NCBI GenBank assembly: GCA_046726795.1
Contig: JBKPBH010000027.1
Coordinates: 4,215-68,214 of the forward strand
Origin: Acidobacteriota bacterium
GTDB taxonomy: Bacteria; Acidobacteriota; Thermoanaerobaculia; UBA5066; Gp7-AA6
Length of the DNA: 64,000 bases
Direction: 5' to 3'
The position numbers and the translations under genes were made by a program. The first letter of the stretch is position 1; each line of letters starts with the position of its first letter. The notes under the pieces are model-generated. The model worked only from the letters and a program-made list of their open reading frames with translations, did not search any database and was not told the DNA's origin. Positions 27,248 to 30,115 of the stretch are shown here, piece after piece.

Positions 27248-28591
27248 ATGCCCCGCGCCACGACGGTTTTCGCGTGCCAGTCCTGCGGGGCTTCGTCGTC
27301 CAAGTGGCTCGGCCGCTGCCCGGACTGCGGGGAGTGGAACAGCTACGTCGAGGAGCTTCGGGCGGAGAGGGCCGCTCCGCAGGCGGCCCTCCCCGCCTCG
27401 ATGGCGCAGGTGCAGGGCGAAGCGAGCACGCGGCTGGCGACCGGCCTGCCGGGTCTCGACCGGGTGCTCGGCGGAGGACTGGTCGCGGGTTCGGTCGTTC
27501 TTCTGGGCGGCGAGCCCGGCATCGGCAAGTCCACCTTTCTCCTCCAGGCGGCCCGCGCCCTCGCGACACTGGGCGGCGATGTCCTCTACGCCACCGCGGA
27601 GGAGTCGGCGGCTCAGGTCCGGATGCGAGGCGAGCGGCTTCGCGTGCGGGAGGAGACCCTGCTGCTCGCCGCCGAAACGGACGTCGAGCGCGTCGTCGCG
27701 GCCGCCGAGCGCCGCCCGCCGGCGCTGCTGATCGTGGACTCCATCCAGGCCGTTCGAGAACCGGCTCTCTCGTCGGCGGCCGGCACAGTCACGCAGGTGC
27801 GCGAGTGCGCCTCGGTCCTGCAGCGGTTCGCCAAGACGCGAGACGTGCCGGTCATCCTGATCGGCCACGTGACCAAGGACGGCAGCCTCGCCGGTCCCAA
27901 ATCGCTCGAGCACCTCGTGGACACCGTCCTGACGCTCGAAGGGGAGAGGACCTCTCTGCGGCGCGTCCTGCGCGCCACGAAGAACCGGTTCGGGCCGGTC
28001 GAGGAGCTCGCGCTTTACGACATGACCGGGGAGGGTCTTTCCGAGATCTCCAATCCTTCGGCTGCGCTCCTGGCCGAGCGGCGGGCCGGCCTTCCGGGCA
28101 GCGCCGTGACGGCCACGCGGGAAGGGTCCCGTTGCCTTCTCGTGGAGATCCAGGCACTCGTCGGGCCGCCGGCGGCGGGCTCCCCCCGGCGTGTGGCGAT
28201 CGGTTTCGATCCCGGACGGCTCGCCCTTCTCCTGGCCGTTCTCGAAGGGTCGGGCCTGCCGCTGGCGTCCCGGGAGGTCTTCGTCTCCTGCGCGGGAGGC
28301 CTCTCCACCGCCGAGCCCGCGGCGGACCTGGCCGCGGTGGCGGCGCTGGCCTCTTCCGCCCGAGGGCGCGCCATCCCCGCGGACGTCGTCTGCTTCGGCG
28401 AAATCGGATTGCTCGGCGAAGTTCGTCGAGTTCCGGCGGCCAGCTCCCGTCTGAAGGAGGCCGTGGCCATGGGCTTTCAAACAGTTTACCTGCCCTCCGG
28501 AGACGCGGCGGAAGCCGGGCGCTTTCAGGATCTCGCGATCCGCCCCGTCGAGCGGGTCAGGGACTTCGTCCAGGAGATTTGTGATTTGTGA
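27248..28591 (+). CDS. radA: DNA repair protein RadA/Sms
   Basis: N-terminal Zn ribbon CQSCGASSSKWLGRCPDCGEW, RecA-like Walker A GEPGIGKST, KNRFG motif, Lon-like C-terminus. Confidence 0.95.
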   Translation: MPRATTVFACQSCGASSSKWLGRCPDCGEWNSYVEELRAERAAPQAALPASMAQVQGEASTRLATGLPGLDRVLGGGLVAGSVVLLGGEPGIGKSTFLLQAARALATLGGDVLYATAEESAAQVRMRGERLRVREETLLLAAETDVERVVAAAERRPPALLIVDSIQAVREPALSSAAGTVTQVRECASVLQRFAKTRDVPVILIGHVTKDGSLAGPKSLEHLVDTVLTLEGERTSLRRVLRATKNRFGPVEELALYDMTGEGLSEISNPSAALLAERRAGLPGSAVTATREGSRCLLVEIQALVGPPAAGSPRRVAIGFDPGRLALLLAVLEGSGLPLASREVFVSCAGGLSTAEPAADLAAVAALASSARGRAIPADVVCFGEIGLLGEVRRVPAASSRLKEAVAMGFQTVYLPSGDAAEAGRFQDLAIRPVERVRDFVQEICDL

Positions 28592-28659
28592 TTGTTGATT
28601 TGTGATTTGTGATCAGGGCAGCAAGCGTCGCTTCGCCCCCTCACTCATCACAAATCACC
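28576..28659. repeat. Tandem heptamer array (GATTTGT x5) spanning the radA stop codon, with a downstream inverted copy
   Basis: gatttgt gatttgt gattgtt gatttgt gatttgt encodes the last radA codons (ICDL*); atcacaaatcac at 28647-28658 is the reverse complement of gtgatttgtgat at 28581-28592 (12 bp stem). Confidence 0.6.
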
Positions 28660-28673
28660 TCGCCGATTGTCCA

Positions 28674-29255
28674 TCAAAGCGATGGCCGAAAACGAGGTGA
28701 GCGCTCGTTCTCTCGCTCCAAGGACACGAGAAGCCGCAAGGGCGCGGGGCCGGGCGAATCGGGCGGGAAAGGGGCGATCAGGGTGACGCGGGCGGCCGGA
28801 TCCAGCTGGAATGCGGCCGGTTCGAACGTTCGCCGCTCCACCACCCGGTAGCGCCGCAGACCCAGGGAAGTCGTCAGGCGGACCCGGTCGCCAAGCCTCA
28901 TCCGGCCGACCGCCTGGGCGCATCGCCCTCGCGAGATCGCGATCGCCGAGGGCGTGCCGGTCTTCTCCTCTCCGGGCAGCGCCGTCTCCGGCACGTGACC
29001 GGCGCCCCGGGCGAGTGTGTTCGCCGCAATCCCCTCGAGCACGGGCGCATCGAGCGCCAGTCGCGCCACGGTCAACCGGGCGATGAGGTCGCCCTCCGGG
29101 ATTCGGGACGCGCGGGCCCCCGACGAAGAGCGAACCACGCTTCCTGCCCGCCGTTCGATTCCGGAATAGACATCCCGCGCGAAGGGAACGGTGAACAGGA
29201 TCCCGAACCCGAGACCGACGGAAGTTAAGGCCGGAGCGAGCCTGTGGGAGAACAT
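28674..29255 (-). CDS. Sortase-like transpeptidase-fold protein (possibly catalytically degenerate)
   Basis: N-terminal TM; sortase-like layout ...LARGAGHVPETALPGEEKTGTPSAIAISRGR...LGDRVRLTT..YRVVERRTFEP...VTLIAPFP. By my alignment the canonical AGHR His and TLxTC Cys positions read SRGR and TLIAP. Confidence 0.4.
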   Translation of the reverse strand: MFSHRLAPALTSVGLGFGILFTVPFARDVYSGIERRAGSVVRSSSGARASRIPEGDLIARLTVARLALDAPVLEGIAANTLARGAGHVPETALPGEEKTGTPSAIAISRGRCAQAVGRMRLGDRVRLTTSLGLRRYRVVERRTFEPAAFQLDPAARVTLIAPFPPDSPGPAPLRLLVSLERENERSPRFRPSL

Positions 29256-29329: not shown

Positions 29330-29983
29330 CTAGAGGGTCTTCCGACCGATCAGCAAGCCGGCCGCTATGAGGGCGAGGCCTGCCAGGGCCATTCGAGGAA
29401 ACACGGAGGCCGTCTTGGGGAGCGTCGTCTCGGCCGGAGCCGGCGCAGCCGGAGGCGGAACGTACGCGGGCGCCGGGGGCGCCGGGGCGGGCGCCGCGGG
29501 TTCCGGAGGGGGCGCGGCCATGGTCGAAGTCGAGGTCGATGTCGTGCTCTGCGCGATGACGGTGGAGGTCGTCGTGATGCCCACCTCCTTGCGGTCGATG
29601 ACCTCTCCGCTCACGTTCAAGGCGACGACCGCGATCCGGTGACTCCCCGGGGGGACGCTGTCGATCGTGGCGGTATTGGACTCCGTCCCCTTCAGCGTGG
29701 CCTTGCGTTGATTATCGAGATAGACGTCGAAGCGCGGCTGCGGGAAGTTGGCCTCTCCGAAACGGGTGCCCTGGCCCGCCCCGAAGACCTGGTGGTTGTA
29801 GTCCACGGTGACGCGGACGCTGCTTCCGGAGATGGTGGCGCCCTCGGCGGGCTCCATCAGCTTCAACTTGAGAGTGTTCTTGGTCGGGCCGCCGGTGTTC
29901 GGGTCGGCGTTCTGGGCGAGAGCCGTTCCGGCAAAGGCGCAAAGGGCGACTGCGGCGATGAGGGTCGAGATTCTCCTGCGCAT
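29330..29983 (-). CDS. Secreted protein with C-terminal sortase-type sorting signal (LPKTA + TM + basic tail)
   Basis: Signal peptide MRRRISTLIAAVALCAFAGTALAQ, globular domain, Pro/Ala/Thr-rich linker, then ETTLPKTASVFPRMALAGLALIAAGLLIGRKTL; strong SD aggaaggaga upstream. Confidence 0.55.
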   Translation of the reverse strand: MRRRISTLIAAVALCAFAGTALAQNADPNTGGPTKNTLKLKLMEPAEGATISGSSVRVTVDYNHQVFGAGQGTRFGEANFPQPRFDVYLDNQRKATLKGTESNTATIDSVPPGSHRIAVVALNVSGEVIDRKEVGITTTSTVIAQSTTSTSTSTMAAPPPEPAAPAPAPPAPAYVPPPAAPAPAETTLPKTASVFPRMALAGLALIAAGLLIGRKTL

Positions 29984-30115
29984 GGTCTCTCCTTCCTGTG
30001 AGGGCGACGCCCAAAAAGCGACGCCGAGGAGAGGCGAAGCAAATGCCGGGCCAATATCAACGGGACGGCCCAGGTTTCAAGGTCCAAGCCTCGAGGGGCC
30101 CGAAGCTTGAGCCTT

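Follow-up and report, generated by a model that had tools for sequence, protein, structure and literature searches.

A sortase-fold protein lacking the catalytic histidine and cysteine is encoded beside a sorting-signal protein in Acidobacteriota

The sortase-like gene and its upstream neighbor

The window, that is, the whole stretch of DNA analyzed here, comprises 64,000 nucleotides of high-GC DNA (65 to 71%). It carries a sortase-like gene, hereafter the pseudo-sortase gene, and a gene for a protein with a C-terminal tag, hereafter the partner. The two genes are located on the minus strand between purC and the convergent radA gene, and their features are as follows.

28674 to 29255, minus strand: pseudo-sortase coding sequence, 193 amino acids (open reading frame list, Pfam, AF2, and Foldseek)
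29148 to 29240, minus strand: predicted N-terminal helix, residues 6 to 36, with the hydrophobic membrane anchor LAPALTSVGLGFGILFTVPFA (AF2; hydrophobicity from the sequence)
28713 to 29102, minus strand: sortase-fold domain, residues 52 to 181, eight strands (AF2 strands; Pfam match at residues 61 to 178)
29330 to 29983, minus strand: partner gene, 217 amino acids (open reading frame list, AF2, Foldseek, and homologues)
29405 to 29422, minus strand: LPKTAS sorting motif, partner residues 188 to 193 (conservation in 41 homologues)
30053 to 30080, minus strand: sigma-70-like match TTGAAA-16-GATATT upstream of the partner gene, after purC (consensus scan, pattern match only)

An earlier note had described the open reading frame as sortase-like and lacking the canonical His and Cys. 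The two strings quoted in that note, GAGHVPETALPGEEKTGTPSAIAISRGR and ARVTLIAPFP, are present in the protein encoded at 28674 to 29255 (minus strand), and the description was borne out by Pfam, AF2, Foldseek, and three alignments. The protein matched the Pfam Sortase model PF04203 with 31.6 bits against a gathering score of 26.6, and the match covered positions 1 to 121 of the 125 profile positions. The score for TIGR01076 was 31.2 bits, below the cut-off of 39.35, and the scores for the NCBIfam class models were all below their cut-offs: 39.3 bits for class E (cut-off, 160), 33.4 bits for class D (165), 32.9 bits for SrtD (140), and 31.8 bits for class GN (158). Solved sortases of classes C, D, and A were matched weakly using HMMER. 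The AF2 model, which was built from 51 homologues, showed a mean pLDDT of 85 and values above 93 throughout residues 50 to 180. The structure prediction suggested as a check in the earlier note thus gave a confident sortase barrel, with strands at residues 57 to 63, 68 to 74, 85 to 87, 103 to 106, 124 to 129, 132 to 144, 157 to 163, and 173 to 181. When the model was compared with the PDB using Foldseek, the best 50 matches were all sortases (E values of 3e-11 to 5e-9). The barrel is joined to the N-terminal helix by a linker that is disordered in the AF2 model. The basic segment MFSHR precedes the hydrophobic anchor, and both R5 and the hydrophobic segment are retained in the family consensus. 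By analogy with sortases, an N-in/C-out topology is predicted. The protein contains a single Cys (C112), as had been noted earlier, and two His residues (H4 and H87, the latter previously numbered H86). No second sortase was found by hmmsearch among all 603 stop-to-stop open reading frames of the window.

The partner gene lies 74 bases upstream of the pseudo-sortase gene on the same strand. Its product consists of a signal peptide (residues 1 to 23, with predicted cleavage between A23 and Q24), a sandwich domain (residues ~40 to 139), a linker rich in Pro, Ala, and Thr, the LPKTAS motif, a transmembrane helix, and a GRKTL tail. The C terminus, LPKTAS-VFPRMALAGLALIAAGLLIG-RKTL, reads as a textbook sortase sorting signal, and no other LPxTG-type proteins were found in the window. 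The AF2 model of the partner was of moderate confidence (pLDDT of 65) and showed an Ig/FnIII-like beta-sandwich of ~100 residues. Its Foldseek matches were generic FnIII/Ig-like domains (E value of 1e-5), and searches against Pfam and NCBIfam gave no significant match. The partner has more than 400 homologues, several of which are annotated as LPXTG anchor proteins. In 41 partner homologues, L188, P189, T191, and A192 were invariant and S193 was nearly so. The predicted mature N terminus, QNADxNTGGPTKNTL (residues 24 to 38), was invariant or nearly invariant in the same 41 homologues and opens with Gln directly after the predicted signal peptidase site. The promoter consensus scan gave one match (30053 to 30080), against 0.1 expected, which suggests that the partner and the pseudo-sortase gene have a promoter of their own.

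The spacer between radA and the pseudo-sortase gene contains a heptamer tandem repeat. GATTTGT is repeated 5.4 times over the radA stop codon and the adjoining spacer (28576 to 28613), and its complement, ATCACAAATCAC, is located 27 to 54 nucleotides downstream of the repeat (28641 to 28666), giving inverted repeats of 12 to 26 nucleotides. These inverted repeats may form a hairpin terminator that is shared by the two convergent genes and has no T-run. A consensus terminator scan found no terminator in this spacer.

The catalytic positions and the homologous clade

The activity of Staphylococcus aureus SrtA requires each of the residues H120, C184, and R197. To our knowledge, all known sortases need the catalytic His and Cys, and the family is treated as one of obligate Cys/His/Arg transpeptidases. 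In the pseudo-sortase, the three corresponding codons were assigned as follows.

28932 to 28934, minus strand: Ser108, codon TCG, at the catalytic His position (SrtA H120; alignments)
28770 to 28772, minus strand: Pro162, codon CCT, at the catalytic Cys position (SrtA C184, TLxTC motif; alignments)
28734 to 28736, minus strand: Arg174, codon CGG, retained third catalytic or substrate-positioning residue (SrtA R197; alignments)

The register was taken from HMMER alignments to solved sortases, in which IAISRG of the pseudo-sortase aligns with ITGHRG of 8t28, from a MAFFT alignment of 110 sequences, S. aureus SrtA among them, and from an alignment of 62 sequences that contained canonical sortases of Acidobacteriota. 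All three alignments agreed in placing I105-A106-I107-S108-R109 on I-A-G-H-R and T158-L159-I160-A161-P162 on T-L-I-T-C of the canonical sortases. The earlier note had read Arg at the His position and Ala at the Cys position. The absence of both catalytic residues stands, but each residue was misplaced by one: R109 is the conserved Arg immediately after the His position, which is occupied by Ser108, and A161 occupies the position of the Thr preceding the catalytic Cys, which is replaced by Pro162.

The His column contained A, P, S, T, or G in the pseudo-sortase clade versus H in 36 of 36 canonical relatives, and the Cys column contained P, A, S, T, or I versus C in all 36. Such free variation of the former catalytic columns is the pattern of relaxed positions and not that of a replacement nucleophile. 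Arg174 was present in all sequences of both groups (25/25 pseudo-sortases and 36/36 canonical sequences). A profile alignment placing H87 or C112 at a catalytic position had been named beforehand as evidence against the loss, and neither residue fell at such a position in any alignment. As a relocated catalytic residue, C112 was rejected because its column is not conserved (C, S, N, R, L, A, or G). H87 was rejected because it belongs to the motif GxGHxPGTALPG and is as invariant in the canonical sortases (36/36) as in the pseudo-sortases (25/25).

The changes in the clade extend beyond the catalytic pair. H108, F113, L116, T161, and C162, which are invariant in the 36 canonical relatives, are lost, and F165, Y167, and A179 are largely lost as well. 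Both groups retain A106, R109, T158, P164, A171, P172, R174, and the whole segment from G84 to G95. The retained residues match A118, T180, L181, and R197 of SrtA, which we take to line its LPXTG groove. In addition, A59, T80, R137, R141, D166, and P170 are newly conserved in the clade; among these, D166, R137, and R141 are clade specific and more than 90% conserved. The beta3-beta4 loop of the clade carries an insertion of three or four residues. Because the pseudo-sortase has neither the nucleophilic Cys nor the His, and no longer carries the Thr in front of the Cys position, thioester-based cleavage and transpeptidation should be impossible for it, and canonical sortase activity has very probably disappeared.

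A sequence error, which the earlier note had offered as one of three options because His and Arg codons can differ by one nucleotide, was excluded. The codon TCG of S108 is three substitutions away from the His codons, the codon CCT of P162 is two substitutions away from the Cys codons, and no catalytic motif was found at the proper place in the other reading frames. An independent ENA assembly showed 97.8% DNA identity over 9.4 kb and encoded an identical pseudo-sortase protein; the five nucleotide differences in the coding sequence were all synonymous. Because the substitutions are common to the whole family, the independent assembly is concordant, and changes of several nucleotides would be needed in both codons, sequencing error and frameshift were both rejected.

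A search of 5.8 billion proteins with the pseudo-sortase gave 109 clusters. The 103 closest clusters (37 to 100% identity) all lacked both the His and the Cys, and the six most distant clusters kept AxHR and TLxTC; the earlier note had proposed such an examination of these columns in orthologs. The homologues lacking both residues, more than 100 in number, were from Thermoanaerobaculia/Acidobacteriota. In a profile search covering 1.84 billion 50%-identity representatives, the top 17 matches lacked the His and Cys and the other 133 were H/C/R sortases, all of which ranked below those 17. The open reading frame was intact, again lacking both residues, in 24 genomic loci of metagenome-assembled genomes (MAGs) from Thermoanaerobaculia/Acidobacteriota, and pairwise dN/dS values were 0.08 to 0.3. 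The mean distance was 0.75 for the pseudo-sortase versus 0.29 to 0.35 for the housekeeping neighbors. Because the gene evolves about two times faster than these neighbors, the constraint on it is moderate. A neighbor-joining tree united the pseudo-sortases in a single clade, divided into three subclades, that branched from within the canonical class-D-like sortases retaining His and Cys. This monophyly fits a single ancient loss of the two residues. The pseudo-sortase is a pseudoenzyme in the sense of the definition, namely, an enzyme homologue that has lost its catalytic residues and is under purifying selection, and this option was the best supported of the three in the earlier note.

Gene pairing and active sortases in relatives

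The tagged partner was located immediately upstream of the pseudo-sortase gene, on the same strand, in 23 of the 24 related loci and in the window (24/25 in total). The upstream partners of these 23 loci end in [LM]PxT[AG][ST] followed by a transmembrane segment and a tail containing R or K. The extended motif [LM]PxT[AG][ST]xxP is retained in the partners of all three subclades, the individual forms being LP[KHTQ]TA[ST] in one, MPRTAS or LPRTAS in another, and LP[AK]TG[ST] in the remaining one. The wider order of genes is also conserved, with an M17 peptidase gene, purC, the partner, the pseudo-sortase, convergent radA, MlaD, and an ABC ATPase gene, indicating a vertically inherited core-genome locus. 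In the single exception to the pairing, locus L006, an intact pseudo-sortase gene follows purC after 318 bp (L006:3587-3905) with no partner gene between them. Another locus, L003, has the usual upstream partner (LPTTAT) and a second partner paralogue (LPKTAS) downstream (L003:10684-11310). A mirror-tree test of the pseudo-sortase against the partner, with shared phylogeny removed, gave a partial r of 0.17 with a permutation p of 0.10, showing no clear co-evolution signal apart from common descent.

Homologues of the partner also occur beside active-type sortases. At locus L033 of another Acidobacteriota MAG, a partner homologue adjoins a sortase that retains both His and Cys. This homologue shows 50% identity over the sandwich domain, starts with the N terminus QNADKNTAAPTAN, and ends in LPETAS; the N-terminal QNAD.NT is common to it and to the partners of the pseudo-sortases. 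In profile score, the L033-type sortase (P0245) ranks with the nearest canonical relatives, and the L033 pair is an ancestral-type arrangement of active sortase and partner. Canonical acidobacterial sortases also adjoin LPKTAS- or LPKTGS-type proteins at six further loci (L027, L031, L032, and L036 to L038). The canonical sisters at L028, L033, and L038 matched the class D models best, with 108 to 129 bits, short of the curated cut-offs. In the MAG DASWIB01, a pseudo-sortase (L012) occurs together with a canonical sortase (L028, 97 bits against Pfam), the one case of co-occurrence found. The pattern used to scan genomes for canonical sortases recovers only 6 of the 133 canonical representatives.

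The canonical sortase at L028 has no adjoining tagged protein. It is followed by an L,D-transpeptidase with PG_binding_1 and YkuD domains and by an M23 peptidase (L028:9716-12418). The cluster looks like one for peptidoglycan remodeling, and the sortase in it may be the housekeeping enzyme of the lineage.

Possible function and relation to known systems

Loss of the catalytic residues, the sortase fold, purifying selection, a single clade of origin, and strict pairing with a tag-bearing partner are the observations that a function of the pseudo-sortase has to accommodate. The reading we prefer, with a probability of about 0.6, is that the protein has kept its anchor, its fold, and probably its groove, and binds the tag of the partner instead of cleaving it. 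The pseudo-sortase would have descended from an acidobacterial sortase of the class-D-like type with a single neighboring substrate, and would have retained the groove in the form of I-A in beta4, T-L in beta7, the Arg in beta8, and GxGHxPGTALPG. The partner would be exported by means of its signal peptide and held in the cytoplasmic membrane by its C-terminal helix. From its anchor in that membrane, the pseudo-sortase would face the periplasm, bind LPxTAS uncut, and act as a noncovalent receptor, holder, or chaperone. In one version of this model, the pseudo-sortase keeps the partner tethered to the membrane; in another, it would gate the access of the partner to an active sortase encoded elsewhere. 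The model is drawn from the retained groove residues, the strict and ancient pairing, the preserved tag, and the active pair at L033. The topology, binding of the tag, and the outcome of binding are thus inferred, and the mirror-tree result, locus L006, and the faster evolution of the gene relative to its neighbors count against the model.

Three other explanations were weighed against tag binding. It is barely credible that the gene is decaying into a pseudogene or that it arose as a sequencing or assembly artefact. The low scores against sortase models (31 to 39 bits versus 97 for a canonical relative) and the faster evolution compared with the neighboring genes would be expected of decay, but the open reading frame is intact in every locus with dN/dS of 0.08 to 0.3, the same substitutions are found in more than 100 clusters, and AF2 gives a confident fold. 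The codons are several nucleotides away from those for His and Cys, and the independent assembly encodes the identical protein from DNA diverged by 2.2%, with synonymous changes only in the coding sequence. A function unrelated to the neighboring tag is rather unlikely, although more probable than decay. The protein could, for instance, have a structural role in the envelope or bind stem peptides of peptidoglycan; a canonical housekeeping sortase encoded elsewhere would alone process the tag, and the adjacency would be a historical leftover. The coexistence of both sortase types in DASWIB01, the pseudo-sortase at L006 with no adjoining partner, and the result of the mirror-tree test (partial r of 0.17, p of 0.10) are in line with this explanation, and the conservation of LPxTAS could be owed entirely to an active sortase elsewhere, with the pseudo-sortase not touching the tag. 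Adjacency and orientation, however, are kept in 24 of 25 loci across three subclades at 40 to 60% protein identity, a divergence that gave enough time for an unselected linkage to break, and the conserved residues are those of the groove lining rather than of other surfaces.

It is very unlikely that the pseudo-sortase is still an enzyme in which other residues, such as Asp166 with His87, Arg174, or Thr158, cleave or transfer the partner. Several observations would suit such an enzyme: no variation is seen in Arg174, Thr158, His87, or the GPAPxR loop between beta7 and beta8; D166, which follows the former Cys position by four residues, is clade specific and more than 90% conserved, as are R137 and R141; the T-[AG] cleavage site of the partner is strictly retained; and the gene pair is kept as in one-enzyme/one-substrate sortase systems. 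Nevertheless, the former catalytic columns vary (A/P/S/T/G and P/A/S/T/I) like relaxed positions, canonical sortases conserve His87 and Thr158 just as strictly, so that these are no new acquisitions, and the segment following the old His (F113 and L116) has also decayed. The literature search found no report of a Cys-independent sortase. The narrower proposal that a Cys/His-independent sortase-fold enzyme uses Asp166 with Arg174 and His87 to process the LPxT[AG][ST] site of the partner between T and [AG] appears slightly less probable still. Some room for another chemistry is nevertheless left by the newly conserved D166, R137, and R141, which lie close to where the active site used to be.

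The pseudo-sortase was compared with known systems. Class D sortases (NCBIfam NF033746 and NF058671) and the class-D-like sortases of Acidobacteriota share with the pseudo-sortase the fold, the N-terminal anchor, the motifs GxGHxPGTALPG, TL, YP, and GxAPxR, and a partner with an LPxTA[ST]-like tag. Unlike them, the pseudo-sortase lacks the catalytic His, the Cys, and the Thr preceding the Cys, scores about 33 bits against cut-offs of 140 to 165, carries the insertion of three or four residues in the beta3-beta4 loop, and has a decayed helix after beta4. Because two defining features of active sortases are missing and the NCBIfam cut-offs are not reached, we place the protein within the sortase fold family but not among the sortase enzymes.

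The gene pair also resembles those of the Gram-negative class GN "marine" sortases (TIGR03784), in which a sortase-family gene of a non-Firmicute lies beside the gene for one dedicated tagged protein, and the tag of the present partner resembles LP[QK]T[AS]T. In contrast, class GN sortases keep the His and Cys, and the pseudo-sortase reaches 31.8 bits against a cut-off of 158. In a passage of a 2021 review (PMC8225981), where Comfort and Clubb (2004) is cited for them, the single-sortase/single-substrate pairs of Gram-negative genomes are described as "not well characterized."

For a membrane-associated protease homologue that has lost its catalytic residues, is under selection, and is proposed to bind a client, client-binding pseudoproteases may be the nearest functional analogy. 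Such proteins include the iRhoms and Derlins of the rhomboid family and the LytM-domain factors EnvC and NlpD. The pseudo-sortase differs from them in its unrelated fold and lineage, and client binding, which was demonstrated for those proteins, is inferred here. Acidobacteriota are presumed to have two membranes.

A full-text literature search, with most subscription journals outside its scope, returned no published description of a pseudo-sortase family and nothing relevant on inactive sortase homologues or on sortases of Thermoanaerobaculia or Acidobacteria. If confirmed, the clade would represent a pseudoenzyme branch of the sortase family, the first found so far, and it would indicate that recognition of a sorting signal need not be followed by cleavage. 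The pair, which so far comes from uncultured genomes only, would be surprising to sortase specialists. The clade offers a natural experiment on the roles of the sortase groove beyond catalysis and a way into the unstudied sortase systems of Acidobacteriota.

The analysis also flags a systematic annotation error, by which more than 100 clusters are named as active sortases. Among the sequences P0002 to P0109, JGI and NCBI label the proteins lacking the His and Cys as "sortase A," "sortase," "class D sortase," or "LPXTG-site transpeptidase."
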